A DNA stretch of 64,000 bases, taken from the NCBI GenBank assembly GCA_963743435.1, contig CAVUPG010000004.1, positions 176,238 through 240,237 of the forward strand. Reading direction: 5' to 3'. The position numbers and the translations under genes were made by a program. Positions 1-64,000 of the stretch are shown here, in pieces (within the stretch, counting starts at the first letter, position 1; the number at the start of each line of letters is the position of its first letter). The stretch comes from an uncultured Candidatus Saccharibacteria bacterium. GTDB lineage: Bacteria; Patescibacteriota; Saccharimonadia; Saccharimonadales; UBA4665. The notes beneath the pieces were generated by a model. It was not told the DNA's origin. It saw nothing but the letters and a program-made list of their open reading frames with translations, and searched no databases.

Positions 1-110
1 TCCTTTTGCTTAACAAATACTAGAATCTGAACGGCTAACAATACCGCCGAGGCGGGAGAAGAGAGCGAATCATGTATGTTGTCTGTGTCATTGCTGACAA
101 TTGTACACTA

Positions 111-935
111 CTACTTCAAGATGTACAGCACCGAGAATGCCACGGCATTTTTGATAGGCGTGGATACCTACACTGGTCCATATGCTGCCCGTTTTCTCAC
201 GCGCATAGGGAGTCAGCACGAGTGAGAGCACAAACGTATCGATACCCGCAATCCAGAGCAACGGTTGATTGTCGCCGAATTCGAGATGCCCCACTGCGAA
301 CAGCGCACTCGTGATGATGGCTGCGGCTACGAATGGGAGTTTTCTCTCAGCCCCTTGAACATAAAACCCCGGAATAGCGTCTCCTCTGCCAGAGGTGGCA
401 GCACGACAAGGCTAATAAACGTCAGCACGAGCTCCCAGCTGCCGAGTGGATCCTTGAACCCAATGTCCTGTTGCTGGTCTAGATTCAGGCTTGGTACCAG
501 TACCGACGCCAGAGTTATGACGACAATGTACGCGACAAAATAGACAGCATACCCTCCGAGCGCATACCCAACGTAATGCAAGCGTAACTTTGTAATGCCG
601 AGTTCAGCGAGTGTACCGCCACGATATCTGACATACCCAACAATGGCTGCGATAGTCAGCGCCTCGGCCAGGAGAATCAATGTAAACTGACCAGCAATGG
701 TGTCGATGAAAGCGGTTGGGGTATAGCCAAACAGCCCAACTGCAGTATAGAGTGCCACATAGGCAAACATCTGGGCACCGATAAACGCTAGCAGTGAATA
801 TACGAGCGCTGCCAACGGACCCCAATGCGCCTTCTTCTTTGCTGCAAGTGACGTGTCCATGTCCGAAGCCATCGGCTCACCATGCGCTACTTTGGGCTCA
901 GTATTGCCACTAGAAGAATCGTTTGACATCGACAA
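111..935 (-). CDS. CPBP-family intramembrane glutamic endopeptidase (CAAX-protease-like); reading frame broken twice
   Basis: ORF 327..935 is polytopic and ends in CPBP motif 1 (EETLFRGF). Motif 2 (LPFVAAAIITSALFAVGHLEF) and motif 3 (HAYQNAVAFSVLYILK*) follow in two other frames. Adding 1 nt at the T4 run 340-343 and removing 1 nt from the T5 run 148-152 gives one ORF ending at 111. The start is 935 (overlaps rseP by 26 nt) or ATG 872. Confidence 0.75.
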
Positions 936-2076
936 AGGTAATTAACGCTATCAGCCCGAGCAGTACGACGAAGCCGGTTCCGTAGACCGCTTCTTCCACC
1001 TGTCTCGTCAAGGGCTTTTTAAGCAATCGAGCGATGCCCATGACAAACACTCGACCACCATCAAGGGCCGGGATAGGTAGTATATTCATTATAGCGAGGG
1101 TGAGTGAAATGATAGCAATGATGAAAAGCATGAATGTCACGCCGAGCGCACTCCCGCCCTTCAGCACAAAATAAATTCCAAGTGGTCCGGATACTTGGCT
1201 GCTTGCTTCCGTCTGAGCGTGTTGCCGTGCCGTAGTGTTACCGGTGATTGCGCCGGCGATGATACCGCCCAACCCTTGCAGCGCGTGCCACAACCCTTGT
1301 AGGGTCAATTTCGTGAGCTGTACGCTCAAACCCACTGCAACAACCGGCGCAGACCAGGTAGAGCGCTGGACCGTGAGTGTAACAGGTTCAACGCCGAGAT
1401 AGCCGACATTTTTGCCTTCATCACGGGCTTGCTCAACGTCCTGCTCAGAATTCAAGACCGCCTGGGTTTCACGCTGGTCACCGTTCCTTGTGTAAGTGAC
1501 CGTCACCTCCTGGCCAGCCAGGTCTTTCGTAAGGGTTGCGAGTGGTTTGCTGCCTACATCGACGACCGCCCCATCCTGCTCGGTAAAGCTGATGATTTCG
1601 TCCTGCTCTTGTAGCCCGGCTTTAGCTGCCGGAGAACCATCCTCAACATAGCCGATCATCACTGTCGTGTGCGTGACCTTGGTATCGCTCGCGACTGTAA
1701 ACTGGTTATCAATAATCTTCGGCATGCCAGTCAGTGCCAAAATAGTAAACAGCACGAGCGCTGTGACGAAGTTTACTGCCACCCCAGCCAGCATAATCTT
1801 GACCTTCGCACGGTCGCTGGCGGCCCCGAAGCTGCCAGGTGTTTTGTCAGCATCGTATTCGCCCTTGAGCTTCACAAACCCCCCGAGCGGGAGCAAGTTT
1901 ATCGTAAAGTCCCAACCTTTTGCCATTCGCTTTTTCCAGAGGCGAGGAGGGAAAAATATACCAAACTCTTCGACATCAACGCCATTACGACGAGCAGCCC
2001 AAAAATGCCCCATCTCGTGAACGATGACGAGACCGACAAATAGCACTAGCCCAACAATAAATATCAATGTCCCCAT
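910..2076 (-). CDS. rseP: RIP/site-2 zinc metalloprotease, M50 family, with PDZ domain
   Basis: 388-aa ORF with HEMGH (HExxH) in the first TM helix, a central PDZ-like segment, NILPIPALDGG near the C-terminus and several TM helices. Confidence 0.9.
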   Translation of the reverse strand: MGTLIFIVGLVLFVGLVIVHEMGHFWAARRNGVDVEEFGIFFPPRLWKKRMAKGWDFTINLLPLGGFVKLKGEYDADKTPGSFGAASDRAKVKIMLAGVAVNFVTALVLFTILALTGMPKIIDNQFTVASDTKVTHTTVMIGYVEDGSPAAKAGLQEQDEIISFTEQDGAVVDVGSKPLATLTKDLAGQEVTVTYTRNGDQRETQAVLNSEQDVEQARDEGKNVGYLGVEPVTLTVQRSTWSAPVVAVGLSVQLTKLTLQGLWHALQGLGGIIAGAITGNTTARQHAQTEASSQVSGPLGIYFVLKGGSALGVTFMLFIIAIISLTLAIMNILPIPALDGGRVFVMGIARLLKKPLTRQVEEAVYGTGFVVLLGLIALITFVDVKRFF

Positions 2077-2103
2077 AGGTGTTTGTAGTATACCTGATTA
2101 TGC

Positions 2104-2667
2104 TTAGACGGTCATGATTTCGGCTTCTTTTGCCTTTGTTGCAGCCTCAATGTCACTGCGCGTTGCCTGTACGGCATCTTCTACCTGGCTCGTCAGCCGC
2201 TTCGCATCGTCTTCGCCAATTTCTTTGTCCTTCTTGGCTTTGTCTACTGCGTCTATCGCCTCATGGCGCACATTGCGCACCGCAATCATGGCGTCCTCTT
2301 GTTTGCCGCCAAGCTGCTTCGCAATTTCGCGGCGACGCTCCTCGGTGAGCGGTGGGATAGGCACTCGCACAACTCGACCATCATCACTTGGGTTGAGTCC
2401 CAGGCTTGGATTATCACGGATGGCGCTGGCAATTGCCTGAAGATTATTCGGATCAAATGGAGTAATTTGCAGGAGCTGTGCCTCTGGTGCAATAACATTC
2501 GAAACTTGATTCAGCGGCATCGGCTGACCATAAGCCTCCACCATAACGCCATCGAGCATCGATGCACTTGCACGTCCCGTACGAATCGTCTTGAGCTGCT
2601 CCTGATAGTGCTCAACTGCTCCGGCAAGTTTCTTTTTGGCATCATCAACAATCTGATTTGGGTTCAT
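2104..2667 (-). CDS. frr: ribosome recycling factor
   Basis: 187-aa ORF with the full-length RRF pattern (e.g. RVPIPPLTEERRREIAKQ), in the usual tsf-frr neighbourhood. Confidence 0.95.
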   Translation of the reverse strand: MNPNQIVDDAKKKLAGAVEHYQEQLKTIRTGRASASMLDGVMVEAYGQPMPLNQVSNVIAPEAQLLQITPFDPNNLQAIASAIRDNPSLGLNPSDDGRVVRVPIPPLTEERRREIAKQLGGKQEDAMIAVRNVRHEAIDAVDKAKKDKEIGEDDAKRLTSQVEDAVQATRSDIEAATKAKEAEIMTV

Positions 2668-2704
2668 TTGGTCTCCTTAATCCCTTCGATAGCTCTAGTA
2701 TACA

Positions 2705-2734
2705 CAAAAACCGACGGGGTTTCCCGCCGGTTTT
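2705..2734 (-). terminator. putative intrinsic terminator/attenuator downstream of tsf
   Basis: GC-rich hairpin ccgacggg/cccgccgg (1 mismatch, 2711-2730), followed on the minus strand by TTTTTGTG. Confidence 0.45.
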
Positions 2735-2751
2735 GAGCTGAGAGTGTAGGG

Positions 2752-3347
2752 TTACGCGACTTCGCCGAGAGCGATGCGCGAGAAACGTCGCACGACGATG
2801 TTCTCGCCAAGACGAGCATTGTGCTCTTTGACGTACTCACCAACCGTCTGATCTGGGTTCTTGATGAACGGCTGATCGAGGAGGCAACGCTCTGCAAAAT
2901 ATTTGTTGAGCTGGCCTTCGACAATCTTCTCTGCCATGTCTGCCGGCTTGCCTTTTAGGGCATCACCTTCGAGCAGTTCCTGCTTCTTGGCATCGCGGTC
3001 AGCAGCCGGAATGTCCTCTGAGCTGACGTATTCTGGGCTGCTCGCTGCGATGTGCATGGCGAGGTCCTTTACGAGGTCAGTGAAAATCTCATTACGAGCG
3101 ACGAAGTCTGTCTCGCAATTTACTTCAACGATAACGCCAATGCGCCCGTCGTGGTTGTAGGTGCCAACGATACCTTGGCGTGCTCACGCTCACCGCGCTT
3201 CTCTGCCTTGGTCATGCCCTTTTTGCGCATTTCTTTCAGCGCTGCGTCGAAGTCGCCACCACTCGCGTCGAGCGCTTGTTTAGCGTCAGTCATACCAACA
3301 CCAGTGAGCTCACGTAAACGTTTAATGTCTTCTATAGATACTGCCAT
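2752..3347 (-). CDS. tsf: translation elongation factor Ts (short form); one frame break
   Basis: N-terminal piece (ORF 3120..3389, real start MAVSIEDIKRLRELTGVGMTDAKQAL at 3347) and C-terminal piece (ORF 2752..3057). The missing middle (QGIVGTYNHDGRIGVIVEVNCETDFVARNEIF...) reads through in the C-terminal frame. A 1-nt indel lies near 3176-3185. Confidence 0.9.
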
Positions 3348-9412: not shown

Positions 9413-11049
9413 TTACGGTACTAGTATAGCAAACTGAGTGCCTTCTGGCACGTCCAAGCCAACTGGGAGCGAGCTTGAGACGGTGAGCTGGAAGCGGTTC
9501 TCGAGATAGTGCCGCGTATAGCTTGCAGTCCCACCACTCAGATCAACCACCTTCGCCCCTGAATTGGGGCATCAGTCACGACACTCTTCGTCACATTGTA
9601 GCCAAGCTCCTTGAAGCGTGCTCGCTTGCGCGTCTGCTTTAGCCTGCGCCGATGCAAATACCATCACCGAGTGCATTTTCTTTTGTGAGAAAGCCATCTT
9701 TGAGCTGACTTTTCACATAGGTCTGGATTTCCGAGTAGCTAGAGAAGCCTGCTTTCGGTCGAACCACAGACAGAGTTACCCACCCTGTCAGTCGTAAGCA
9801 AATCATGTGGCGGCGTGGTGAGCCCAATGGATTCAATATTCGTATCGTTGATACGTCGCATGAGCGTAAAGAGTCGGGATGCCCCCTCAGTACTCAAGTC
9901 CGAATATGCATTGTTGCCGAACGCCTGCATGATACTATTTATTTTCGCTGGGTTGCTCAAGGTACCGAGTGTCAGGACTTTTTCCTTCAACGCAACGAGG
10001 AGTTGTCGCTGCCGCTCGCTTCGTGCAAAGTCTGAACTCGTGTGTCGAGAGCGAGCATATAGCAATGCTTCTTTGCCGTCCATTACCTGTACACCAGCTG
10101 CAGCAAGCAGCGGGTTGTTATGATTCTCCCAGGCCATGCTCGGGTCATACAACGATTCTTTGACGTCAACAGTGACACCATCGACCGTGTCGACAGCCTG
10201 TCTGAATGCTTTGAAGTCAACTAGCAGATGATAATTGATATTGATGCCAAGCACGTCCCCAAGCGCTTGATCTATAGAGGTAAATCCTGCCTGGATCGCT
10301 TTGGGTTCTGCCATCGTTGGGTCGGACTTGCCAAGGTAGCGATATTTGCCTGCACTGTAGGCGGCATTTATCTTTTGGTACTCACCGAAATAATTGACCG
10401 GCATCTTGACCCACAGATCGCGAGGCACGCTGAGTAGCACGGCTTTATTATTAACAGGGTCGACACTGAGCACAATAATAGTATCAGTCAGGTCAGAGCC
10501 ATCATGACCAACACCCCCTACGCCGAGAAGTAAGATGTTAACGCGACCATCACCTTCACCTTTGAGAAGATTCGGCGCAACTTTGTCAGTTGAGAGGGCT
10601 GCGACCGTCCCAGTACCTTGGAACACTTTGTGTGCTGCAAGATAGCCTTGCCACGCCATAAAACCACCACCGATAACAAACAGAGCGACGACAAAAGACA
10701 TCGATTGGATAATGAGCCGCTTGGTCCGCCTTCGTTTCACGATCTGCTTGGGCCTTTCAGGCAACTCGTACACTGGCAGCGAGAACTGAGGGCTTTCCAT
10801 TGTACGAGTCTGTGTCTGATTTGGTGCAGTCTGCGCAGCTGGCTGCTGAGTCACACCATCAACACTCACCCTTGCTTGAGGAGGTTGCCATGGTTGTTGA
10901 AACGCAGGTTGGGCCCCATTGGCTTGCTGCTGCACTCGTGTCTGCGGTTGTATGCTGCGTCGTACGGCGGGCGCAACGCGACTTACCCCATCTATTGATG
11001 TTGTGGAACGACGCATATAACCAGCGCTGCGAGACGTGTTTGTTTGCAT
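9413..11049 (-). CDS. LCP (LytR-CpsA-Psr) family cell-wall glycopolymer transferase with LytR_C-like tail; 3' part frame-broken
   Basis: ORF 9739..11049 has a TM anchor plus the LCP core (NILLLGVGG...DTIIVLSVDP...LLSVPRDLWV). The C-terminal continuation (VVRPKAGFSSYSEIQTYVKSQLKDGFLTKENA ... ELGYNVTKSVVTDAP ... KVVDLSGGTASYTRHYLENRFQLTVSSSLPVGLDVPEGTQFAILVP*) is spread over at least 3 frames between 9413 and 9840. Confidence 0.8.
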
Positions 11050-12820: not shown

Positions 12821-13583
12821 TCAGAGGCCGGCACGCTGCACCACTTCCTGTGCAAGCGCCTTGTACGATCGAGCGCCCTTGCTCCATTTGTCATGTTCGA
12901 ATATGGTCTTGCCATGACTTGGCGCCTCTGCCAATCGGATGTTACGTGGTATTACTGTCTTAAATACACTATCGCCAAAATGCTGGGTGACCTCCGTTTG
13001 TACCTGCTCACTCAACACCGTTCGCTTCGTATACATCGTCAGCAGCACCCCGAAAATCGTTAAGCGAGGGTTAAGCCCCTGGCGTACCAGTTGTATTGTT
13101 TGCATGAGCTGACTGAGCCCCTCGAGTGCGAAGTACTCGGCCTGGACAGGTATCAGCACCCCGTTTGCTAGCTGTAAGTGCATTGACCGTCAATAGGCCC
13201 AGAGCTGGCGGGCAGTCAATGATAATAACGTCGGCTTGCACATTCATGAGCAAATCGGTCAGCTTTGTCTCTCTACTATCAACTGTTACTAGATCAACCT
13301 CTGCCTGTGCCAGCGCTCCGTTTGTCGGCAAAATGTAGAGGTTTTTGATGCGTGTAGCTAATAATACGTCCCCGACGGCTTGTGTACCAATTAGTGCATC
13401 ATAGAGTGTTAGCTCAAGACCCTCTTTCTCTATCCCAAGACTACTGGTGGCATTCCCTTGTGGATCCAGATCAACCAGGACAACACGACGCTTGGCGGAT
13501 GCAAGTTGTGCAGCCAAATTCACCGCGGTCGTCGTTTTACCAACTCCGCCCTTTTGATTTGTCACAGCCAGAACGAATGCCAT
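12821..13583 (-). CDS. parA: chromosome partitioning ATPase ParA/Soj; one frame break
   Basis: The N-terminal ORF 13071..13583 has the deviant Walker A NQKGGVGKTT. The C-terminal ORF 12821..13183 continues with ANGVLIPVQAEYFALEGLSQL. A 1-nt indel lies near 13160-13175 (AAA/GGGG runs). A strong SD (GGAGGAGG) lies upstream. Confidence 0.9.
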
Positions 13584-34903: not shown

Positions 34904-35001
34904 GCTCGTATTGGCCCCACCGGCCGCCGCACTACAACTACTCCAGATAGGTGCAGCACCGACGCCGTTGGAGACAAGACATGAGCCAGCAGCGACTGCT
35001 G

Positions 35002-40197: not shown

Positions 40198-40205
40198 ACG
40201 AATAC

Positions 40206-45284: not shown

Positions 45285-45523
45285 ACTTGAGGTAGCGAAC
45301 TGACTGATACTGCCGTCACTGACGTTAATCTTGGCATAGAGGAGGTCATTGAGTGACCCGCCCTCAGAGACGTTAAGCCCGCGAGCGCATAGAGATAGCC
45401 GTTGTAGCCAAAGGCAGACCCACGCCGACGGACCGGGTTCAATTCGACCGGTACATCATCGCCATTGCCTTTGATGCCATACGGGCCCCGCGTCGCTGGC
45501 AGATATCCACGCGCTGCCACCAT
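45281..45523 (-). CDS. Kelch-like protein fragment
   Basis: Contains YNGYLYALAG. Short piece between frame breaks. Confidence 0.45.
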   Translation of the reverse strand: MVAARGYLPATRGPYGIKGNGDDVPVELNPVRRRGSAFGYNGYLYALAGLTSLRAGHSMTSSMPRLTSVTAVSVSSLPQV

Positions 45524-46052
45524 CTGCCGCCACGATGTTGTTAGAATTATCTATCTTGGCGTACAGCACCTCGCCACGCTCACCCTCGTTCGGGCTCTGG
45601 CCGCCGATGAGATAGATGTAGTTGGCATAGACCGTACCGGCTGCTACCCCGAGACCCTGCGTGCCAGCGGTTGTTTCTGAGTCAATCTGGAGTTGTCCGC
45701 TCGTCGTACAGGTGCTACCCGATGTTTCTAGCGATCCGTCAGTCTTAATATAGCACTTATACACTTCTGTGTAGAGCGTACCTGTGCAGTCGAGGCCGTT
45801 ATCTGCCGCCGTGACACCGCTACAGCCACCGAGCACATAGAGATTCCCTGGGTATGTACCAGCCGATGACGGATTTGCCCGGGTAAACGCGTACTGGTAT
45901 CCCTTAGCGTTACCGAGCCCTACATTGCCAAATGTCTGAGTGGACCACGATCCCCAGGTACCATCGCTATTAAAGGTCGACCCGCATAACCGTATCTTGC
46001 CACTGCGTACCTGTCGTTCCACCGATGATGTACATGGTGTTGTTAAACACAC
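45456..46052 (-). CDS. Kelch-like protein fragment
   Basis: Contains GNLYVLGGCSGVTAADNGLDC and ANYIYLIGGQ. Confidence 0.6.
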   Translation of the reverse strand: MCLTTPCTSSVERQVRSGKIRLCGSTFNSDGTWGSWSTQTFGNVGLGNAKGYQYAFTRANPSSAGTYPGNLYVLGGCSGVTAADNGLDCTGTLYTEVYKCYIKTDGSLETSGSTCTTSGQLQIDSETTAGTQGLGVAAGTVYANYIYLIGGQSPNEGERGEVLYAKIDNSNNIVAADGGSAWISASDAGPVWHQRQWR

Positions 46053-46299
46053 TATACCCGAATGCGGAAATTTTGTCTGGCATCGATCCGCTGCCGTTTA
46101 TCGCGCACCAACTACCTACGAAACTGCCTGAGCAGCTCGAAATTCGTGTGATGTGTCCTGCGGAATCGATAGCAGCATATGCGATGTTGTCGGTCGACTT
46201 CCCAGAGTTACCTGTGAAACACACACTATTATTCCCAACTGCCGTGCAGCCCCCGATGTAGTAAATGTAGCCATTGTTGATTATGGCACCCCCGGACAT
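45970..46299 (-). CDS. Kelch-like protein fragment
   Basis: Contains NNGYIYYIGGCTAVGNNSVC and NNTMYIIGGT. Confidence 0.55.
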   Translation of the reverse strand: MSGGAIINNGYIYYIGGCTAVGNNSVCFTGNSGKSTDNIAYAAIDSAGHITRISSCSGSFVGSWCAINGSGSMPDKISAFGYSVFNNTMYIIGGTTGTQWQDTVMRVDL

Positions 46300-46345
46300 A
46301 CCCCCCGCCTGGCCGTTACCATCCCCCTGTGGTGGCAGGTCGCAG

Positions 46346-47218
46346 TTATAGTAGCCCGTACCCTGACACGCAGGGTGACGTCCCGTTTGAAACAGATGTA
46401 CTCACCGTGCTCACATCACCGTCTGGGTTAATCTCACCAATGTCTGTTGTTGTTTTTACGCTCGTGCAGGCCCCTGTTGACGTGTTTTGGGCACTACACC
46501 CACCGATGCCGTAGAGCGCGTTACGCCACACCATGAGCCCATAGCCCATACGGCTATTGGTGATGTTGGTAACGGTGGTCCAGTCTGTGATGCTACCGTC
46601 CGCATTGATGCTCGCAAGTTGGACATCATTGGCGATGCTCGTACAGTAGCCACTGCCATTCACCGTCGAACAACCACCGGCCACATAGATGTACCCACCC
46701 CATATGGTCGCGAATTTACCCCCAAGTGCTGCCCGAGCCGTCGTAGTACCTGTATTACCTATTGGGTTACCCGTTTGCCAGGAGTTGATAGTGCCGTCAG
46801 TGTTTATTTTGGTATACAGTACCGCACTCTGCGTTGTCGTCCCACTGATACCCCCGATGACGTATAAGAAGTCGTTATAGGTTTGCAGACTGTGACTCAT
46901 TATTGCTGAGGACAGTTGGGACATGCCTGTTGTCGTCCAGTTTGTCAGCTTGCCGGTTGGGTTAATGTCTGCCTTCTGTACGGTTGTAGAGCCGCCAGTC
47001 CATCCAGATGTTGAGCCGCCTACAACATACATACGGTTGTTATACGCGACCGCACCCAGGAACGCACGGTTTGAGCTCAGCGCCGTGTCGCTGTACCAGT
47101 AGACCCAGTTGTTTTTGTTAGTGTCAGTTGGGTGCCAGAGCTGGGGTTCGCCATTGGCGCCCAGCTTCGCAACATACACCGTACTCGTGGCGCTCCCCCC
47201 GCTATTGAGACCCACCAA
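46346..47218 (-). CDS. Kelch-like protein fragment (290 aa)
   Basis: Contains NNRMYVVGG, NDFLYVIGG, GGYIYVAGGCSTVNGSGYC and RNALYGIGGCSAQNTSTGAC. Confidence 0.65.
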   Translation of the reverse strand: MVGLNSGGSATSTVYVAKLGANGEPQLWHPTDTNKNNWVYWYSDTALSSNRAFLGAVAYNNRMYVVGGSTSGWTGGSTTVQKADINPTGKLTNWTTTGMSQLSSAIMSHSLQTYNDFLYVIGGISGTTTQSAVLYTKINTDGTINSWQTGNPIGNTGTTTARAALGGKFATIWGGYIYVAGGCSTVNGSGYCTSIANDVQLASINADGSITDWTTVTNITNSRMGYGLMVWRNALYGIGGCSAQNTSTGACTSVKTTTDIGEINPDGDVSTVSTSVSNGTSPCVSGYGLL

Positions 47219-47271
47219 ACAGATACAGATAGCCGTTATACGCCACTAGGGAGGCGCCTTGACGTACCTGG

Positions 47272-48456
47272 CTACTTGGGCAGGTTATATGCAGAGTTGG
47301 TGCACCAACTGGCACAGGCACCCGCACCGGGGTTTGGCTGCTCTATCAGCCCCGTTGAGTTGTTGATGTGTGCCCAATACACGTCGCCTTTGACCGACGA
47401 GCCGTCGTTACCACCGACGATGTAGATATACCCACCAGCGACCGCCGTGGATTGATTCCACCGCGCAGACGGCAATGCAGTCATGCCAGTTGTCACCCAG
47501 CTATCGAAACGCCCACCGGTTGTCTTCCCCTTTTGGATGAGCTCATTGTCGATGTCGAAGTCGATGTTACTCTCGTTGTTACCGCGCATGAGCTTTGCTG
47601 CCGTCTCGATGTAGACCGAAGGGTCAATCGTGAGTGGGTAGCTGGCGTCCTTGAGCCCTTCAGCGTAAATGGTCAGCACATTGTCCTTGAGGCCATACCA
47701 GGCTCTTGCGTTGCTGACTTGCTTCCCTGACTCTTTGATGAACGGTGCCGGGATGCTAAACAACAGGTTTGTCTTGGGTGCGTTGGCACGAGCTTTCTCG
47801 AGCAATTTCGCATCTGCATCGGAGCCAGTCGTCACATTGCCCAGGAGATTACTGTCTACACCGTAAATACCGATAGCGCCGCTCGGCTCCATGTGGGCTT
47901 CAAGCCCATCATCCAGAGACAGCTCATAGGAGAACTCTTGCTTGTCACCCTGATAATGGTTCAGGATGATATCCTCCTTGAGCTTGATGGCCTGGGCAGT
48001 AAACACTTGCTGGGCGTCGCGGCCCGTTACGGGATAGATGACACGGTTTTGGTTTGTCTGCGGAGCCTTAAGGTTAAACTTCGGCTTGAAGCCCATTGTG
48101 ACCTGGCTGACGGGATCTGTTATGGTCACGCCCTTCTCGGGGTCCTGGCTGAAGCTAGCACTAAATTTTGCTCTCGCCGAGTCTCCAGACATCGTTGTGC
48201 TCGGCGTGTAGTCTTTGTTGAATTCGATTGTTTGGGCCTTGGTATCTACCTTCAGGCTGTCGGCCAGGGTAGGCACGGCATCCGGCAGGAGTGCAGCGGC
48301 CTGAGGGGTAAGTGCATAGGCATTTGCCTGCTGCCGCCAAATAGACGTATCGATAAAAATCGTACTCAACATCAGAAGTGCCATGAGGCCCCATCCTAGT
48401 CGCGTTAGTACCGGATGTTTGCGCTTAGATGGCCGATACTGTTGTGCTAGGCGCAA
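47272..48456 (-). CDS. Kelch-like protein, N-terminal fragment (basic tail, TM anchor, non-repeat domain, first blade)
   Basis: TM helix LGWGLMALLMLSTIFI and the first blade GGYIYIVGGN. The start is uncertain: TTG at 48456, or ATG at 48665 (MDNRQKPTY...) joined through another frame break. Confidence 0.6.
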   Translation of the reverse strand: MRLAQQYRPSKRKHPVLTRLGWGLMALLMLSTIFIDTSIWRQQANAYALTPQAAALLPDAVPTLADSLKVDTKAQTIEFNKDYTPSTTMSGDSARAKFSASFSQDPEKGVTITDPVSQVTMGFKPKFNLKAPQTNQNRVIYPVTGRDAQQVFTAQAIKLKEDIILNHYQGDKQEFSYELSLDDGLEAHMEPSGAIGIYGVDSNLLGNVTTGSDADAKLLEKARANAPKTNLLFSIPAPFIKESGKQVSNARAWYGLKDNVLTIYAEGLKDASYPLTIDPSVYIETAAKLMRGNNESNIDFDIDNELIQKGKTTGGRFDSWVTTGMTALPSARWNQSTAVAGGYIYIVGGNDGSSVKGDVYWAHINNSTGLIEQPNPGAGACASWCTNSAYNLPK

Positions 48457-48764
48457 CGGTTTCGTATCTGATAGCGCTCGTGCTTTGCGCCGTAACTGCT
48501 GTATTGGGTGGCGAGGTATCCTAATCGATATAGTACCCTTGTGTGGGCTCCGGAGCGCGGTATCTCTTGAGCATGCGATTGTGCCGTCGGTCTTGCCGCT
48601 GGGCGTGCAGTATCATCGAGGTATGACGGGCCTGTACGATACGTTGGCTTTTGTCTATTATCCATGTCGGTTTCCAGCTGGTTGCGTGTAGCCGCTCTCT
48701 ACAGTGGCCGACGCTCCTATTACACTAATGCTTTCTAGTGTAGCACTTTTACCCCCGTTTGAAT

Positions 48765-49134: not shown

Positions 49135-52100
49135 CTACTTGTTGCTGTACTGGAACGTTAAGTTTTCTGCATATACCGAAGCGTTACTTTGCGCGGTCAC
49201 ATCAATCTTGAAGACGATGCTATCTCCAGCGACAAACGAGGTACAGCTGCTCGGATCGGTGGTCGGCGCAGCGGTGGTCCAGGTATTGGTCGAACCCGAG
49301 CCAGAGCCCACGACTGTCTTACTCGCACTACAGCTCGTGAGACCACCGCCAGATGCTTTGCGGTAGATTGAGTACGCTATGCCGGCATTGGATGTACTGT
49401 CGACCAGCCCTGTCATATTGGTCGACCCACTGACGAAGCCCTTAAAGGTTGACGGCAAGCGGTAGGTGACGTAGATGCTGTAGGTCTGTGCTGTAGGTTG
49501 TGGTGAAGTCCACTTGTAGTAGTTGCGTGCCTCGCCGCTAGCACAGAAGCCTGTGTTGACCGAGAGACCACCACCGTTGCCACAGAAGTCGGCTGTCAGC
49601 GTACCCACGCCCGTGCCGTTCAGTACGGCGCCAGTATACTCAGGAGTAAGCGTGATGATGTCATCTGGCGCACTACCACAAGCACCCCAGCCATTTGACT
49701 GGTAGCACTGGATAGTACCCTTCGTGGTGTCGTAGTACATTGAGCCGAGGAATGAGTCATTACCAGCATCCATCGGTGGACCAGCAAACTGGTCGAGAGT
49801 GAAGATGGTTGGCTGGCCACCGAATGAACCGCCACCAATCTGGACATTTGCAGGAGTAGTACTGCCAGCGTTTGAGATGACACTCAGGTTGTCGATGTAG
49901 AAAGTGCCCGATCCAAGGTCCGTTTCATAGATACGGATGGCATTCCCAGAGGTGATACCACTACTCGGAACGGTGATGAAGCATGATACCTTCGTCCAAC
50001 TACTCTTGATGGAGAAGTCAGTGGTACTGGTGTAGCCAGTGCCTGGCAAGCTGGACTCACATGCTGCGCTGTTTGCTGAGCCATCGATGCTGTAGTAGAT
50101 ATTGAGTGTGTTCGGGCCACCACTTGCAACCTTGGCTGCGAAGTTAACGACGTAGATTTCGTCAGCCGTCAGCGACGTTGTCAGGGCGCCCTTTACCCCT
50201 TGGTTGTTGCCTGTGGTGACTACACTCACCGATGCACGTCCTGTTGCGACATTGCTCGATGTTGTGTTCTGAGTGACTGTTGAGCCGATCGCAGTCCAGC
50301 CAGTGAAGGTTGTTTCCTCTGCGCCACCATTGTCAGCGTAGTCTGTCGTGTTGTTGTTGACTGAGAAGAGGTTGGTGGCAATTGAGCTCTGAACCTCAAA
50401 GAGGGAGCCTGTAATCGGCACGCCATTGTTACGGATAGTGAAGCCGTCTGCATTACCGCCAGGAGCGTTCAGTACGAGCTCTGCACCACCGGCACTCGTC
50501 AGCGTGTTGTTGTAGGCAGACTGAAGGTCAGTCGAGCTTGATGCACCAGCAGCGGTCCAGCCTGTGCCGTTCCAGATGAGCGTGGCGGTGCTGTTTGGCT
50601 TAAGCGCGATGTTGATGCTCGTACCAGAAAGCAAGATGTTGAAATCCTCGCCTCCGACATTTGCCAGGTAGAGCACACGACCGACGACTTGGTTAGCCGC
50701 TGCAGGCGCAGGCACTGTGACCGTTACCCCTGTCGTTGTAGCTGCGACTGGCACAGAGCTGTACTGGTCAACGAGGCCAGCGGTCAGGCTACCAGAACTG
50801 CCGAAGCTTTGGGTGCTGCTCGAGAGGAAGGCACTGGTCGAGAAGGTCACGAGGCCCTGGACGCCACTACCCGTCCCTGCGCCACCACTGATGAGTACAG
50901 CCCCGCCGTCTGCATTCGTCCCGCCACCGGTGCCACCCTTGATGGTGACTGCGCCACCGGTACCGGTGCCGTTGCCGGTGCTGCCCTGAATTGTCAGGCT
51001 TGTACCTGCAGTGTTAGCTGCCGTCTGTGTCGCGCCCTGTATGGTCGTATTGCCGGTTGCAGAGCCAACGGTGATAGTGTCTGAGCCAAGTACGGTTGCA
51101 TTGGCGCTATTACCGATGGTAACTGTGCCAGTTGATGTGCCGGTTGCAATGTTTACGGCGTAGTTGCTGTTTGCGTTGAGGTTCACGGCCCCGCCGCTAG
51201 CAGTAAGAGAACCTGTCGCCACGACGTCACCTTGCAGGCTAAGATCTATGCCTGCGTGGCCGATATTGATAGACTCAGCATTTGTTGTGCCGATATTGAT
51301 AGCTGGTGTACCCTGATTCTTCACGATTGTAATGTCATCGAAGTACGTTATAGAGCTACCGGTACCGGTACCACCGAATGTCAGGTACATGTAATTAGCC
51401 CCTGCCGGCACTATCGTCGTGAGTGTCATCTGCGTCCATTCAGTTGTGGTAGCGGTTACGCTCGGTATAGAGCTGTAAGGCGCAGGACCACTCCATTCGA
51501 TTTCGCCACCGATGTTCTCGCTGACAGTAGCTGTCTTTACCCATGCACTAACCGTAATTTGTTCGCCTGGCGTGACTGCTACCGAGTTATAGTCCTGCTG
51601 AATACCCCAGTAGGTAGCCCCCTCCGCTACCTGGAGTACACACGAGCCACCATGGGCACCTGCGCCCAGGTTATGACCTGTAAGGGTAGTGTCGAACCAG
51701 TCGTTCATATCATCGGTCGAACAACCCTCGAAATCGTCATTGACTGCGGTGGCTGGAGACCCTGCGTCACTTGCACCGTTATCGATAGATATGTTGCCCG
51801 CAACACCACTCGATGAGTCACCTGACTTGAGGTACACCGCGCCGCTATTCCCTGTTGTGTTACCGGTCGTCGCTACAAGAGATCCAGTTCCTGCTTGCAA
51901 TGTAAGGCTGCTGGCACCACTCGTAGAACCGAGTGTTACCGCTTGGTCACCAGTACCTGTGGCGATGTTTACAGAGTGATTAGCGTTGTTTGTCGCAACA
52001 TTCACGGTCGTGGCGTTGGTGGTACCGATAGAGAGCGTACCTGCTGCTGCGGTGTCGAGGAGCGGAGTCAGGATGCTGGTGTCAGCTCGACCGGTGCCGG

Positions 52101-55100
52101 CGATCCAGAAGCTGGCAACACCGTCTGTCTGTTGTGCACTGTTCTGGTTCTGGATGAAGTTGGCGCTGCTAGCCGCACAGTTACCGAGCGTCTCGAGACA
52201 GAAGGTGTCATCAACACCTGCTGTATCAGGGATGGTGATGGTGGCATCCGCACTCGTCTGCCCCTCCGAGACGATACTGACCTTGTACGCAGTCGTGCTG
52301 CTGTAGAGTGCGATGCTACCGTCAGTGGTGCTGGCTACACCAAGCGTGAGGCTCGAACCACCAGTGATGGTACCGGAGATATCGGTGTTTGCGTTCAGCT
52401 TGATAGAGCCCGCGGGTTGGATGACGTAGTTACTTGAGCTATCGACCTGGCCGGCGTAGATGGTGCCAGTACCAGCATCGTTGATAGTGGTCGCCCCCGT
52501 ACCGCTGAATGTGTTACCCGAGAGATAGGTACCACTGATGCCCGTTGCATTAATCTGGATGGCGTAGCCGGTACCGGCGGTATCAGAAACGGTGTTGTCG
52601 GTAATTGACGCGTTACTTGCGTACGCGCTGATAGTAATTGAGCTGGATGCGCCTGAGCCACCATTGTCGTAGAGGACGTTGCCCGTGATGGTGACGCCGT
52701 CAGAGTGGTAGGAAGTGGCGCCGTTTATTCGTATCCCCTCGGTCGTGTTGCTGCTGGCCGTGTTACCGGATACCAGTACGCGGTTGGAGCCGTAGACGTA
52801 GAAGCCAGGGCCAGTGTTTGAGACGGCTTTGTTGCCGCTGACGACCGCATCGTCGCTGTAGGCAATGTCGAAGCCACCGTTACCATTACCAGACGCGGTG
52901 TTGCCTGTCACGCGCATGTCGACATCTGAGTCGAGGTAGAAGCCATAGCTGTAGGCGTTGTTGGCCGCCGTGTTGCCTGAGACGACGTTGCGGGTGCCAC
53001 CGACGTAGAACCCTGCACCCCCCGTGTTGGTTGCGGTGTTATTACTCACAATGTTGTCGGTACCGAAGATTTCCATACCGTCGCCGCCGGCAGTGTTACT
53101 GACTGTGTTACCAGTGATGGTGTTGAAGCTGGAGCTAGAGTAGACATTTATACCACCGCCACCGGTGTTGATGATAGTGTTGTCAGTGAAGGTGTTGTGG
53201 TCACCCGAGGTAATGTCGAGGGCATCGTAGGCAACCCGGGTAATCTGTAGACGAGTCACAGTCGCACCGGCGCGTGAGCCAGACTCACTGCCCATGCCGG
53301 TGAGGTTGATGCCTGCTTGTGATCCAGCGCTGTTGCGGTCATTGCGGCCATCGAGCTTGAGGTCACGGATGGTGACGCCGGTACCAGTAGAAGTGTCGGT
53401 GTTCACGATCATGGTGACGGCTGTGCTGGTAGCTCCGAAGTTACCGAGCTGGATGAGCGTGCTGTTGCCGGAACCAGCCAGGGTGACGTTGTTCGGGATG
53501 GAGATACTACCGTCGATGGTGTAGGTGCCTTCGGCGAGGTAGACGGTACCACCACCGGCTGCTGCTGCAGCGGTTAGGGCGTTGTTTATCTCTATCTGGT
53601 CACCGTCAAGGGTACCGATGCCAGCGCCAGCGCTGTCTTCACCGTTGGCAACGTACTGAGCACCGTCTTTGGCTGCTTGGGAGCTGTTGCTGGCGGCGAC
53701 GATGAAGGTAGCGGCTTTGCTGTCGCTCTGCCATTTAGTGCCGTTATATTGGAGGAGTTGGTGAGTAGTGGTGTCGTAGTACAGCATACCTTCAGTTGGA
53801 GAGCCTGGGCGGGTACCGGTGGCACCGCCGGTGATGGTGATGGACTTGTTGGCGGCGAGGACGGTGTCTTGGTTGAGGTTGATGCTGGTGGCGTTGGTGG
53901 TGCCGATGTTGAGGGCAGTTGCTGAGGCGGTGTCGAGCAATGGCGTCAGGACAGACGTATCAGCTCGAGCCGTACCGCTGATCCAGTAGTCACCTGTCTG
54001 CTGGCTGCTACTTTGGTTCTGGATGAAGTTCGTGGCTGTTGGTGCGACGTAGCTCGCATCACAGTCACTCAGCAAGCCAGAGCCGTTGAGACACACCATA
54101 GTGGTGCCGGTGGTGCTATTTAATGTAATACCTATGTCTCCTGCGACAGTCGTGGTGACGCCTGACTGGCCTATAGTTATATCACTCGCATTTGTTGTGC
54201 CTATAGTTAATGAAGCGGAGCTCGCAGTGTCTAGGTACGGTGTCAAGACGCTGGTAGTACCCTCCAGTGTCGCAGCGATGCCTGTGCCGTTTATATTAAA
54301 GTTGCCAGCCTGCGCTGTGCCTGGTGTTGTTCCCTGGAGTGAGACGTAATTAGCGCCGGCGTCGGTCACGCCAATAACTCGCCAGAGACTGTCGCCGCTA
54401 TCATATATAAGTTGTATGGAACCACCGACGGGAATGTTAAGGTTGGCGCCCGTCCCGGTAGTGATGCGATTGGCTGCGCTACTAGTACCTGCATTGTTTG
54501 CAAGCACTGCTGGTGCACTCCCTGCGTTCAGGAGTGTTATCGTGCGACCATCAGTACCGCCGGCGATACCGTTTATCGTCTGCGTGCTGGCGCCGGTGAG
54601 ACGGAAGAGGACGCCAGCGCCAAAATTGACGTCATCGCTTGCACCAGTAGTGCTAAAGTCTGTTCCCTTGTTGAAGGCGACGCCGCTTGTGTTCTGGAAT
54701 GTTGCGTCTCCGACAAAATCTGAGGAGCCATTGAAGGTGTTCGTCGAAGATGAGTTACCGAAACGGATGTCGGTTGCGTTGGTGTCACCGAACGAGATAT
54801 ACCCAAGAGTGCCAGTTGCCGTACCAACGTCAAACCTAATGTTGCCTGAGTTACCCCCGGTTGCGTCACCGCTCTTGATGAGGAACCCACCCGTGTTACC
54901 ACTGACGGTGCTACCACTACGGATAGTGAACGCTACGCTGTCCCCGGCAACGGTGCGGTCCAGCGTACGGATAGTGCCAGTGGTGGCACTGACGATGTCC
55001 CCGCCAAAGAATGCCTTGCCCGCACTATCGATATAGAACAGCTTAGTCCCAGATGAGTTCTTCACCTGGAGGTAGTCGACGCTCTGTCCGCTTGCCCCCT

Positions 55101-55794
55101 GGAATACTGCGACTGAGCTTGCTGCATTAGCGCTCTGGATGTTGAAGTTGCCAGTTTGAGTACTTGCAGTCTGGTTTTGGATGTAGTTGGCGTTTGCCTG
55201 GGCGTCTGTGAGAAGGTTGTACGTCCCTGCCGCGCCCTGGTCTTGAATCTGGAAGGTTTGGTTACCACTGGTTGGAGCGTTGATGGAGAGCGTTGCGATG
55301 TTGGCACCAGAGCTTGTCGTCAACTCACTCGCTGTCTTCGCATTGAACGCATACGGTACGGCGGTGAGGGAGAGTCGTGGGGACATCTCACCGTCCCATG
55401 AGTTGGAGGTGCCAGTACCACCGATGTCCATGGTGAGGTAGAGCTGTTGGTCCCATGGGATGGTGGATGGGAAGCTGGTGATGGCACCGAGGTCAACGCT
55501 GAGGTAGCCGTTGGCAACTCTGACTCGGTTGTCAGGAGAGCCACCGTTGTAGTCACGGGTTTCAGTCCAGAGGAGGGTGCCACCAGTGGAGGCGTCGTAG
55601 AGCTTGAAGCGGACGTTGTAGTTCCCGTCTGGGGCGATCTGACCTGCTCCCTTCTGGAGGCGGGCTTGGAAGTTCAGGGTGTCGTTGGTGGCAGCATACG
55701 CAGGCGTAGACACGCGCGTAAGGAAAAACAGGGGTAGGATGAGCAAGAAAAGACCCGCAAAAATGCGGGCGGTTGTGAGCGCACGGTGAGGCAT
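49135..55794 (-). CDS. giant fibre protein D (2219 aa, intact): signal peptide, conserved N-terminal domain, fibre, beta-helix domain, two CBM4_9-like jelly-roll modules, conserved C-terminal domain
   Basis: Start chosen at MPHRALTTARIFAGLFLLILPLFFLTRVSTPAYA|ATND (AAGGGG SD). The ORF-track extension to 56028 has no coding support. Beta-helix at about 52450-53560. CBM-like modules at about 51320-51755 and 49880-50360. Confidence 0.85.
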   Translation of the reverse strand: MPHRALTTARIFAGLFLLILPLFFLTRVSTPAYAATNDTLNFQARLQKGAGQIAPDGNYNVRFKLYDASTGGTLLWTETRDYNGGSPDNRVRVANGYLSVDLGAITSFPSTIPWDQQLYLTMDIGGTGTSNSWDGEMSPRLSLTAVPYAFNAKTASELTTSSGANIATLSINAPTSGNQTFQIQDQGAAGTYNLLTDAQANANYIQNQTASTQTGNFNIQSANAASSVAVFQGASGQSVDYLQVKNSSGTKLFYIDSAGKAFFGGDIVSATTGTIRTLDRTVAGDSVAFTIRSGSTVSGNTGGFLIKSGDATGGNSGNIRFDVGTATGTLGYISFGDTNATDIRFGNSSSTNTFNGSSDFVGDATFQNTSGVAFNKGTDFSTTGASDDVNFGAGVLFRLTGASTQTINGIAGGTDGRTITLLNAGSAPAVLANNAGTSSAANRITTGTGANLNIPVGGSIQLIYDSGDSLWRVIGVTDAGANYVSLQGTTPGTAQAGNFNINGTGIAATLEGTTSVLTPYLDTASSASLTIGTTNASDITIGQSGVTTTVAGDIGITLNSTTGTTMVCLNGSGLLSDCDASYVAPTATNFIQNQSSSQQTGDYWISGTARADTSVLTPLLDTASATALNIGTTNATSINLNQDTVLAANKSITITGGATGTRPGSPTEGMLYYDTTTHQLLQYNGTKWQSDSKAATFIVAASNSSQAAKDGAQYVANGEDSAGAGIGTLDGDQIEINNALTAAAAAGGGTVYLAEGTYTIDGSISIPNNVTLAGSGNSTLIQLGNFGATSTAVTMIVNTDTSTGTGVTIRDLKLDGRNDRNSAGSQAGINLTGMGSESGSRAGATVTRLQITRVAYDALDITSGDHNTFTDNTIINTGGGGINVYSSSSFNTITGNTVSNTAGGDGMEIFGTDNIVSNNTATNTGGAGFYVGGTRNVVSGNTAANNAYSYGFYLDSDVDMRVTGNTASGNGNGGFDIAYSDDAVVSGNKAVSNTGPGFYVYGSNRVLVSGNTASSNTTEGIRINGATSYHSDGVTITGNVLYDNGGSGASSSITISAYASNASITDNTVSDTAGTGYAIQINATGISGTYLSGNTFSGTGATTINDAGTGTIYAGQVDSSSNYVIQPAGSIKLNANTDISGTITGGSSLTLGVASTTDGSIALYSSTTAYKVSIVSEGQTSADATITIPDTAGVDDTFCLETLGNCAASSANFIQNQNSAQQTDGVASFWIAGTGRADTSILTPLLDTAAAGTLSIGTTNATTVNVATNNANHSVNIATGTGDQAVTLGSTSGASSLTLQAGTGSLVATTGNTTGNSGAVYLKSGDSSSGVAGNISIDNGASDAGSPATAVNDDFEGCSTDDMNDWFDTTLTGHNLGAGAHGGSCVLQVAEGATYWGIQQDYNSVAVTPGEQITVSAWVKTATVSENIGGEIEWSGPAPYSSIPSVTATTTEWTQMTLTTIVPAGANYMYLTFGGTGTGSSITYFDDITIVKNQGTPAINIGTTNAESINIGHAGIDLSLQGDVVATGSLTASGGAVNLNANSNYAVNIATGTSTGTVTIGNSANATVLGSDTITVGSATGNTTIQGATQTAANTAGTSLTIQGSTGNGTGTGGAVTIKGGTGGGTNADGGAVLISGGAGTGSGVQGLVTFSTSAFLSSSTQSFGSSGSLTAGLVDQYSSVPVAATTTGVTVTVPAPAAANQVVGRVLYLANVGGEDFNILLSGTSINIALKPNSTATLIWNGTGWTAAGASSSTDLQSAYNNTLTSAGGAELVLNAPGGNADGFTIRNNGVPITGSLFEVQSSIATNLFSVNNNTTDYADNGGAEETTFTGWTAIGSTVTQNTTSSNVATGRASVSVVTTGNNQGVKGALTTSLTADEIYVVNFAAKVASGGPNTLNIYYSIDGSANSAACESSLPGTGYTSTTDFSIKSSWTKVSCFITVPSSGITSGNAIRIYETDLGSGTFYIDNLSVISNAGSTTPANVQIGGGSFGGQPTIFTLDQFAGPPMDAGNDSFLGSMYYDTTKGTIQCYQSNGWGACGSAPDDIITLTPEYTGAVLNGTGVGTLTADFCGNGGGLSVNTGFCASGEARNYYKWTSPQPTAQTYSIYVTYRLPSTFKGFVSGSTNMTGLVDSTSNAGIAYSIYRKASGGGLTSCSASKTVVGSGSGSTNTWTTAAPTTDPSSCTSFVAGDSIVFKIDVTAQSNASVYAENLTFQYSNK
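55331..55749 (-). repeat. shared 5' module, copy D (coding part only)
   Basis: See 27071-27685. Confidence 0.75.
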
Positions 55795-56190
55795 GACAAT
55801 ACCCCTTAGTCGAGAGAGACTAGGGGTGCGTTGCAATATGGCAAGCGCCGTACGTTTTGGTTTGAACATTTGGTTTAAGGTGTTTGTCTTGGTTTCGCTT
55901 TTTGACTTGCGAGAGACCAAAAATGTTTGTTTGGATTTGTCACGTTTTCGTTTGAATTTTTGTTTCGGACAATTCCTGCACTCAGTATCGCTAGATACGA
56001 CAAGATATACAACCGAAAATGTATGCAAAAATTTGTACCCAATTTGTGCATAAATACCTCTAGAATACGTTGTGCTGTGTGCAACGTTTCATATACACCC
56101 CTGTTTTCTGCACTCGTTTAGGCTACAAAAAGTGATGTAGTGACACCAAATTTCGTAGCTATATTTGCAACGATATTTATATTGCATGTG

Positions 56191-57315: not shown

Positions 57316-60164
57316 GCTTTGCTATGCCCACCGTCAGCTCCCTGCCCTCTACTGTTTCAGTGGTGCGGTACAAGGGGTTCTCTATCTGTTTTACAAATGT
57401 GTGCGTAAGTGTCTCTGCGGCAATCGCATCACTGTGTTCGGTAATGGCATGCTGTAGCTCTTTGTCAGCCGTCTCGAGCGAGAGCTCAATCCTATCGTCC
57501 ACCTCGAGTCCTGCAGCCTTTCGCGATACCTGCACGACACGGACAATCTCACGCATGAGGCCCTCTCGATGCAGTTCGGGGGTTATGACCTCGTCTAGTG
57601 CCACTTCTGGACCGGTGTGCACGGCTTTCACATTGAGCTCGTCCTCGAGAATTGGCAGGAAGTCGATATGCTCACCAAGCTGCGGCACCGTCACGCTAGC
57701 CAATGGTTGTCGTACCTTGATACCTGCCTTGGCACGCTGACTCAAGCCTTGGTTGACGTAATCGCGTACTTGCTCCATGTCGTTCATGACGAGTTCATTC
57801 ACCCGACCAGCTGGAAGCCAATCTTTGAGGTGTACAGACTCTTTGTCGCCCGTGAGTTGATGATAGAGCTCCTCGGCCAGAAAAGGCGTGAAAGGGGCCA
57901 GTACGTAGCTCAGACGCACCAACACATAGTGGAGCGTGCGGTACGCAAGCTGTTTGTCGCTATCATCCTCGCTTTTCCAGAAGCGGCGACGACTTCGGCG
58001 AACATACCAGTTACTGGCGTCATCGAGAAATGGCAAGATTGGACTCAGCGCATCAGGGATGTTGTAGGCATCCATATGCTTCTCCACCTCTGCAACCAGT
58101 TGGTGCATGCGTGAGATGATCCAGATATCGAGCGGGTTCGAGCAGTCTTCGAGCGGGTCGACCAGCTTGCCGTCGTACTCCCACCCATCTACCTCTGCGT
58201 ACATCGTGAAGAAATCGTACATGTTCCAGATCATGCTCAGCTTGCGAGCGACGTCGCCGACCTCTTTATCCTGTAGCGCGAAGTCCTCTCCGTTCAGTAG
58301 CGGTGAGCTGAGCAACAAGAATCGCAAACTATCTGCGCTAAATTTATCCATCAGTTCATTAGGGTCAGTGTAGTTGCCGTAGCTTTTACTCATCTTGCGC
58401 CCATCATTACCAGCCACATTACCGGTGACGATGACGTTCTTGAAGCTATTCTCACCAAACAGCGCGACGTTCATTGCGTGCATGTAGTAGAACCATGCCC
58501 GCACCTGACCGATGTACTCAACGATGAAATCACCCGGGAAATTTTCTTCGAACTTCTGTTTGTTCTCGAATGGATAATGGAACTGCGCAAACGGCATACT
58601 GCCCGCTTCAAACCAGCTGTCCATCACCTTGTCTATGCGTGTGTAGGTCTCGCCGTCAATCTCAAACGTGACATCATCTATCCATGGGCGGTGATAGTCC
58701 TCGAGCTCAACCCCTGAGAGGTCCTTGAGCTCAGCATAGCTTCCCACCACCTTAACCTTGCCGGTTGGCGATTTCCAGACCGGCATCGCCGTTGCCCAGA
58801 AGCGGTCCCGAGAGATGTTCCAGTCAGGGGCCTGTTGGACCGTCTTCTCAAATCGGCCATGTTTAACATGCGGCGGGAACCAAGTGATTGGCTCATTTTT
58901 CTCGAGCATAAGCTCACGCTGGCCTTCAATATCCATGAACCAGCTCGGGTGTGCGCGATACATCAGTTTCGTGCCACAGCGGTGACAATGAGGGTAGCTG
59001 TGCCGGATGTAGTCAATCTTCCAGACGACACCTTGTTCATGCAGATCTTTGGCGATTTGCTTGTTGACGTCCCAGACGTTTTTCCCTGCCCATTCGCTCT
59101 CGGTAAAGAATCCATTTTGGTCGATGGTGTGTACCACCGGTATACCCTTTTCCCGTGCAAGCACGAAGTCCTCTTCACCATATGCTGGTGCAAGATGCAC
59201 AACACCCGTGCCTTCTTCATGGCTCACGTATGGCGCAGACCACACTTTATGTGCTCTCTCACCTCTGTTTACTCCGAGGAGAGGTTGGTAGGTCTTACCA
59301 ACGAGTTCCTTGCCTTTTAACTCGCGTAGGATGTTGTAAGAAAGTGGTTGATGTTTCTCGTCTTGCAGTACTTTTTCGACAAGTTCTTTGGCTAGAATGA
59401 GCTGCTCATCACCGACCTCTACTTCCACGTATGTCAGCTTTTCGTTTACTGCGACGGCGGTATTGGCCGGCAGTGTCCATGGCGTTGTCGTCCACGCAAG
59501 TAGTGTGCTGCCGTCATCGAGCTTGAATTTCACATAGACGCTGGGGTCGGTGATGTCCTGGTAAGACCCTGCGTCCATCGTGACCTCAGCCTTACTGAGC
59601 GGGGTGCCATCAAGCGTACAGTACATGAGGACTTTTTCGCCCTCATATATTTTGCCCTTTTCGTACAGCGTCTTGAACGCCCACCAGATGGACTCCATGT
59701 AGTCTTTGTCCATGGTTTTGTAGGCGCCTTTGAAATCCACCCAGCGGCCGATTCGATCGACCACGTCTTCCCATTCGCCACTGGTCTGCACCATGTTATT
59801 GCGAGTTGCATTGATGTATTTCTCGATGCCATACTCAACAACTTCTTGTCGCGAGTGGATACCAAGTTTCTTTTCGGTGAAGCGTTCGGCCGGCAGTCCA
59901 TGGCAATCCCAGCCCCAGACACGCTCGACGCGCTTGCCTTTCATCGTCTGATAGCGCGGCACGGCGTCTTTGACGATAGAGCTCAAGCAGCGTACCATGG
60001 TGAGGCACACCCGAGATAAACGGTGGCCCATCGTAGAAAACATAGCTGTTGTCTTTCGGTCGCTGTTCGACGGATTTCTCAAATGTCTTGTCTTCTTTCC
60101 AGCGCTGTACCCAGTCCTTTTCGTATTCGAGTGCTCGCCTGCGTGTGCCGTGTTTGAATTTCAT
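57308..60164 (-). CDS. ileS: isoleucine--tRNA ligase; one frame break near the HIGH region
   Basis: The true N-terminus MKFKHGTRRRALEYEKDWVQRWKEDKTF...FYDGPPFISGVPHHGTLL lies in ORF 59835..60230 (ATG 60164, GGAG SD). The main ORF 57308..60082 continues with SSIVKDAVPRYQTMKGKRVERVWGWDCHGLPAE and has KMSKS. A 1-nt indel lies near 59975-59990. Confidence 0.9.
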
Positions 60165-63617: not shown

Positions 63618-63798
63618 AATTCTCCCTCCATTTGGTACATCTCCGTAAGAGACAAAGACGTACGTGCTTTTATATTTTTGTTAGAGTTTCCTCTAACCCG
63701 CCCCTCACACTGGCAGGTTATCGGCAAGCTCTCCGGGGAGTTCAACAGGTGTTGAGCCCTCAGGAGAGCCGTCGCTAGCCATACAGATGTGAGGAAGT

Positions 63799-64000
63799 TA
63801 TGCTACCGAAGATTCAGTCGTCTTTTGTTCGCGAATTTGCGTGAGCGCCTTTTCGAAGCTTGCAATATCCGTAAATCGCCGATACACGCTGGCGAAGCGC
63901 ACATAGGCAACTTCGTTCAGCGCTGCGAGGCGCTTCATCGCCATCTCACCAATCTTGCGTGATTGCACTTCACTATCAGCGCACGCGTAGAGCTCTTGCT
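63799..64000 (-). CDS. nrdR: transcriptional repressor NrdR, 3' end (partial, runs off the window)
   Basis: Manual translation of the minus strand gives ...IGEMAMKRLAALNEVAYVRFASVYRRFTDIASFEKALTQIREQKTTESSVA*, an ATP-cone C-terminus. The stop is at 63799-63801. Absent from the ORF track because the start lies outside the window. Confidence 0.8.

Follow-up and report, generated by a model that had tools for sequence, protein, structure and literature searches.

The genomes of Mycobacterium leprae and Sodalis are in decay and carry pseudogenes. Interrupted genes are also a known product of sequencing, and gene-fragmenting indels are well described for long-read assemblies (IDEEL-type test, Sereika et al., 2022, PMC9262707; Kastor, PMC12007338). 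Here we examine the frame breaks that interrupt genes in a stretch of 64,000 nucleotides (nt) from a Saccharimonadales bin. This stretch, hereafter the window, corresponds to positions 176238-240237 of contig C4 of G000, the source bin, which comprises 946,787 bp in 8 contigs with 52% G+C. The genes concerned include tsf, parA and ileS, a CPBP protease gene, an LCP (LytR-CpsA-Psr) gene, and several giant genes, namely the fibre genes A, C and D and a Kelch-repeat gene. Very probably the breaks are uncorrected indel errors of the assembly consensus, which occur genome-wide and in patches; fibre C and the Kelch gene fall in a domain rich in errors, and in the organism both are probably intact.

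Breaks were counted by a junction test, in which stop-to-stop open reading frames (ORFs) of relatives were compared with genomes by tblastn and a break was scored wherever collinear high-scoring segment pairs (HSPs) of one protein abut in different frames. Two complete relatives served as references: G010, a member of the same genus with 862 kb, and G015, a single contig of 669 kb. The ORFs of G015 displayed 73 shifts in 341 kb of the bin and 0 in 341 kb of G010, and those of G010 displayed 113 shifts in 437 kb of the bin and 5 in 339 kb of G015. When the results of both references are merged, the distinct breaks number 128 in 477 kb of conserved coding DNA, equivalent to 2.7 per 10 kb; 74 are of the extra-base type and 54 of the missing-base type. 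They belong to the assembly as a whole and are not confined to the window. A reverse control, in which the ORFs of the bin were compared with G010, was rejected because its 27 apparent shifts are mirror images of the bin's own breaks (wrong-frame tails match wrong frames), and was replaced by the third genome. Ortholog coverage of at least 90% in a single frame was obtained for 59% of the genes in the bin vs 76% in G010; the completeness of the bin is 86%, and that of the 20 relatives drawn ranges from 81 to 100% (median approximately 94%).

The breaks are specific to this assembly, consist of indels only, are blind to essentiality and are absent from close sister sequences. These properties lend strong, if indirect, support to the original prediction that breaks in essential genes denote consensus errors rather than dead genes. 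Altogether 105 genes of the bin are broken, and core functions are well represented among them: glyA (serine hydroxymethyltransferase), gap (GAPDH), rplP (L16), groEL, atpD (ATP synthase beta), alaS, metK, ssb, rny (RNase Y), tsf and ileS, together with rpoB, which was recognized by eye only. As to second gene copies, another long match in the genome is lacking for 91 of the 105; the remaining 14 have theirs in sister contigs or distant paralogs, and the bin has one ileS locus.

Individual breaks can be read against related DNA from the bin itself. The small contigs C1, C5, C6, C7 and C8 are 84-99% identical to stretches of C3 and C4 (C3:123803-138105, C3:254043-278041, C3:357532-362177, C3:391771-402424 and C4:53191-60558), so that the bin contains around 60 kb of a second, related strain. 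At 12 of the 13 predicted breaks that have a sister sequence, the exact predicted 1-nt difference was found, in the predicted direction and at sites 90-99% identical, several of them within 25 nt that are otherwise perfectly identical. In gene-dense DNA, the alignments of main with sister contigs show 126 gaps of 1 nt, 22 gaps of 2 nt and 19 gaps of 3 nt. When isolated gaps of a length not divisible by three were considered, the ORF of the main contig was broken 17 times and that of the small contig 5 times, and the small contigs often retain frames that are lost in the main contig. The comparison with sister contigs revealed six deletions, and in three of them a run of TT or TTT is shortened.

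The type of lesion and the constraint on the broken genes were also assessed. In-frame stops were counted on a greedy gene set together with inspection of the alignments, given that shadow-frame ORFs otherwise swamp the count. No clean nonsense codon was found in the long, well-conserved HSPs of the bin. Its mid-gene stops are confined to short alignment stretches of low identity, which we read as probable paired indels, and the other stops listed belong to 5' leaders, to C-terminal tails or to shadow frames. Broken and intact genes show the same similarity to their G010 orthologs (median 61.1% vs 61.0%, p=0.50), and the broken share grows with gene length, from 11% below 250 amino acids (aa) to 24% at 600-1000 aa and then to 50%. 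This pattern looks like random damage to the sequence record, unlike mutation filtered by selection. The signature of genome decay, composed of nonsense codons, varied indel sizes and relaxed conservation, was absent in the tests performed on the bin. As a separate observation, the relative G010 displays a clean in-frame stop at C19:55692, in an otherwise well-aligned FtsK-like gene (AEVG*RNIEEY vs AEVGKRNIGEY).

It had been proposed that the location of several breaks at short homopolymers points to long-read indels. Using 500 simulated random insertions and 500 simulated deletions, carried through the identical placement routine, we determined the sequence context expected by chance. The two breaks of the CPBP gene are indeed located in A4/T4 and A5/T5 runs, but this does not extend to the genome as a whole, where runs of at least 3 nt hold 27-28% of the breaks (22-24% simulated) and runs of at least 4 nt hold 7-11% (6-8% simulated). 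Insertions extend a homopolymer in only 5% of the cases vs 19% simulated (p=0.003, 73 insertion-type breaks, genome-wide). The homopolymer hypothesis was rejected on these grounds, there being no genome-wide enrichment over simulated indels and an avoidance of runs by insertions. Insertion-type breaks are instead enriched in the contexts CT, GCT and CTA (p approximately 2e-5), and 66% of the insertions, vs 42% of the simulated ones (p=1.6e-4), present two different third-codon-position bases side by side, either of which can be removed silently. The insertion context looks like the signature of a consensus algorithm, and the idea of side-by-side alleles receives moderate support. No such signal was seen in the deletion-type breaks, for which the test has little power.

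We infer that the breaks are errors rather than alleles, namely indels of 1 nt, occasionally 2 nt, that a contiguous metagenome assembly, presumably a long-read one, has kept in its consensus. They span the 947-kb genome at around 3 per 10 kb of coding DNA. They are arranged on two scales, as patches of 0.1-1.5 kb holding several indels and as domains of 10-40 kb that are rich in errors or free of them. Our best guess as to the cause of this patchiness has two parts. Consensus building would have run into trouble where reads of a co-assembled second strain differ from the main strain, and such strain differences would lead to insertions in which two alternative third-codon bases are written side by side; ordinary deletion errors at low coverage would account for the other part. 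The insertion pattern suggests a strain-mixed consensus over simple homopolymer miscalling.

The distribution of the breaks along the genome is far from uniform. Their variance/mean ratio is 2.24 per 10 kb of covered conserved DNA (p=6e-6) and the spacings between them are non-exponential (p=5e-5). At their densest, the breaks in conserved DNA number 13 per 14 kb and 17 per 19 kb, and positions 0-40 kb of C3 hold 0 in 31 kb covered. Micro-patches occur in housekeeping and fibre genes alike, with 4 breaks in around 360 nt of the LCP gene and 4 in 130 nt of fibre A. Fibre C and the Kelch gene together show 17-24 breaks in 19.2 kb, for which the negative-binomial tail, calibrated on housekeeping DNA, is 0.002-0.05 in a genome that has approximately 49 windows of such size; they represent the upper tail of the distribution and are no clear outlier. 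The probability of zero breaks in the 6.9 kb of fibre D is 0.07-0.17. The striking unevenness that had been noted in the window is then real, but it does not separate the fibre genes from the housekeeping DNA, conserved DNA being equally patchy across the genome. The break type itself is weakly clustered (runs test p=0.03). Fourteen consecutive deletion-type breaks are found at C4:128275-179417, a run that extends into positions 1-3182 of the window, and runs of the insertion type are observed elsewhere, e.g., at C3:397704-418889.

In the window, breaks were confirmed by three-frame translation together with ortholog HSPs, and their placement was guided by the orthologs; all the genes described here lie on the minus strand. 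The single breaks claimed for tsf, parA and ileS, the two in the CPBP gene and the several in the LCP gene are all present in the deposited sequence. The first break of the CPBP gene (342-344, corresponding to C4:176579-176581) is of the deletion type: an A4/T4 run is short of one base, and the ortholog HSPs occupy frames -2 and -1. The second (148-152) shows one extra base in an A5/T5 run; frame 0 continues as ...GIHAYQKC and frame 1 as ...IKNAVAFSVLYILK followed by a stop, and the C-terminal ends of the orthologs read ...HFMNNIIAFFVIY. The tsf gene (EF-Ts, family TIGR00116) lacks one base at 3180-3182, outside any homopolymer, and the HSPs flanking the break are 91% and 78% identical to tsf of G010. 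In the region encoding the C-terminal domain of the LCP protein, a patch of four frame changes within around 360 nt (9500-9863) takes the translation through frames 0, 1, 2, 0 and 2, with ortholog HSPs in frames -1, -2 and -3 and one change placed at 9773-9775. The parA break is an insertion of one extra base at 13169-13170 (C4:189406-189407). The ileS gene harbors one extra base at 59984-59988, within CTGCTTGAGC, where dropping any of five bases yields an identical Leu-Leu-Ser-Ser. Its relatives are full length, with 945-1069 aa (119 listed of 7,999 scored, the window's own protein excluded), and are labelled Saccharibacteria/Saccharimonadales in their source records.

The giant genes can be described in the same terms. 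Fibre C (28011-42224) shows 12 frame changes from 42224 to 29588 by ORF tiling, which are grouped into three patches, the clean stretches between them measuring 4.4, 2.9 and 2.0 kb; several of the junctions are bridged by collinear paralog or ortholog HSPs that pass from one frame to another. Up to 6 further putative changes are located in the 3' tail (29588-28478), a section without a homolog for comparison; the earlier count for this gene was at least 15 breaks. By means of paralogs, indels were placed at 35027, 34319-34325 (a net change of one base), 34027, 33860 and 33683, and the in-frame stop at 33736-33738 sits in an out-of-frame stretch. Repeated modules make up 44% of the gene and contain around 8 of the 12-17 fibre C breaks, about half of them, with no clear enrichment; the idea that repeats induced mis-polishing is not clearly supported by this figure. 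Positions 31094-31115 show three 1-nt gaps in 21 nt when compared with sister repeat copies at 35168-35751 and 37372-37862, with a net loss of 3 nt and the frame kept; this is a patch of errors that compensate each other, or else the difference of 3 nt is real. Additionally, the last piece of the tail (28014-28451) shares 69% identity with the last 146 aa of a 1178-aa ORF located 3' of the fibre gene in G007, and the 3' end of fibre C may match a separate second gene in the relatives.

The Kelch-repeat giant gene (43482-48612), which matches Kelch Pfam families, displays 5-6 frame changes, at around 47270 (1-2 changes), 46366, 45975, 45500 and 45400, where at least 6 had been reported before. 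Its orthologs are intact single open frames of 1696-2241 aa and are collinear with the pieces of the bin's gene in changing frames, and its in-frame stop at 45456-45458 sits in an out-of-frame stretch, as in fibre C. The order of a giant Kelch gene followed by a fibre gene is kept in several relatives of the genus (G029:C13, G022:C1 and G007:C4), where both are single open frames and the fibres have 1887-2867 aa; overall, the intact fibre genes of relatives have 1860-2867 aa. Fibre D (49138-56088) is a single open frame of 2317 codons with zero breaks, as described earlier. In fibre A, the reported break at around 25100 is real and consists of a patch of four deletions (1, 1, 2 and 1 nt) at 24983-25111, whose net shift joins ORF 27726-25099 to ORF 25121-18984; the missing bases are present in two mutually agreeing paralogous copies (40716-41020 and 21127-21430). 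The junction of fibre A with the adjacent SBBP gene at 18980, which may earlier have been counted as a frame break, may be a plain gene boundary, given that the fibre A stop (18981-18983) is followed by a 1-nt spacer and the ATG of SBBP at 18979. No signature of phase-variable tracts was seen at the located breaks of fibre A and fibre C, which lie in ordinary sequence outside repeat tracts and long homopolymers, and the longest homopolymer in the window has 7 nt.

Several observations weigh against consensus error as the explanation. The homopolymer bias that is usual for polished Nanopore or HiFi consensus is lacking. Transitions make up only around one third of the side-by-side pairs, a share that real single-nucleotide polymorphisms would usually exceed. 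The regions covered by sister contigs, considered as candidates for the error-rich regions, are not clearly richer overall: 8 breaks in 14 kb were counted for the region of C7, but those of C8, C6, C1 and C5 are average. A same-species assembly, sought through ileS in the protein collection, was not found, the best identity being 84-86%. Finally, breaks are 3-4 times as dense in fibre C and the Kelch gene as in the genome on average, which makes the two genes a strong outlier under a plain Poisson distribution (p<1e-4).

The last of these points also speaks for a rival explanation, according to which a background of errors would be overlaid on genes that are truly broken, fibre C and the Kelch gene being either pseudogenes in decay or contingency genes that frameshifts turn off in some members of the population. 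Both genes are accessory and of a surface type, and they have paralogs in fibres A and D, so that their loss could be tolerated; the Kelch gene is present in only 15 of 27 relatives of the genus. We nevertheless consider this unlikely. Every located lesion in the two genes is an indel of 1-2 nt, both in-frame stops are the product of paired shifts, and no nonsense codon was found in the 19 kb they occupy. According to general mutation spectra, and not to a calculation on this genome, 17-24 neutral frameshifts would come with roughly 8-20 nonsense codons. The fragments of both genes remain open for up to 4.6 kb, the located breaks are away from repeat tracts and long homopolymers, breaks can be almost as dense in conserved housekeeping DNA (13 per 14 kb), and similar micro-patches are carried by the LCP gene and fibre A. 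Population heterogeneity, one of the explanations proposed at the outset, gains some support as a source of errors, in view of the second strain in the bin and the side-by-side bases, and true degeneration of fibre C and the Kelch gene is disfavoured. A narrower version, in which only part of the excess is real, with genes that are off or decaying in the population or with a mixture of intact and frameshifted alleles, is improbable as well; if true, the break map would in part record the microdiversity of a cell-surface island, beyond consensus noise.

Real mass pseudogenization, as in a recently host-restricted symbiont, would make most of the breaks true mutations. Saccharibacteria are reduced epibionts and more than 100 genes are broken, both of which fit such a scenario. 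It is, however, highly implausible, considering that single-copy genes of translation, replication and energy metabolism are among those broken, that no clean nonsense mutation accompanies the indels and that the conservation of the broken genes is not relaxed. Furthermore, the identical test gave 0-5 breaks in two relatives, and the sister contigs of the same sample keep the frame.

Recoding by programmed +1/-1 ribosomal frameshifting or transcriptional slippage, with CTT-A/G as a candidate site prompted by ileS and four other sites and with CTT[AG] occurring at 14 of the 74 insertion-type breaks vs 5.8% of the simulated ones (p=4e-4), is extremely improbable, because the Leu codon degeneracy explains this excess when a silent third-position pair is written twice, no motif is shared by the 60 other insertion-type and 54 deletion-type breaks, the extra base is absent from relatives and from 91%-identical sister contigs (e.g., at C3:125120), long A or T runs for slippage are missing, and the listed ileS relatives are full length. 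The resemblance of CUU-A/G to known +1 slippery sites, such as those of Ty1 and prfB, does not alter this assessment.

Returning to consensus error, the finding is almost certainly an assembly artefact, and the uneven density reflects the patchiness of consensus quality across the genome. Its consequence is an annotation hazard and no biology: at least 105 genes of the bin would appear as pseudogenes or split ORFs, and the deflated completeness (86%) makes it easy to claim gene loss wrongly for a reduced epibiont. In studies of their architecture, the giant fibre and Kelch genes are to be treated as intact. When similar bins are judged, it should be borne in mind that such errors are patchy and that the insertions avoid homopolymers and favour silent sites.

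When compared with known systems, the breaks of this bin are like the indel errors described for long-read assemblies in that they are one-base breaks, peculiar to one assembly, that ignore gene function and depress the apparent completeness; they are unlike them in the lack of a homopolymer bias, in insertions being as common as deletions (74 vs 54) and in their strong patchiness. With errors of a strain-mixed consensus they share the presence of a second strain in the bin, the enrichment of silent side-by-side bases at insertions and, again, the patchiness, although the signature is moderate (66% vs 42%), none was seen for deletions and the sister regions are not clearly richer in breaks. 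With the pseudogenes of decaying genomes such as those of Mycobacterium leprae and Sodalis the bin has in common a large number of interrupted genes, and differs from them in having neither clean nonsense codons nor relaxed constraint, and in that essential single-copy genes are broken according to their length.

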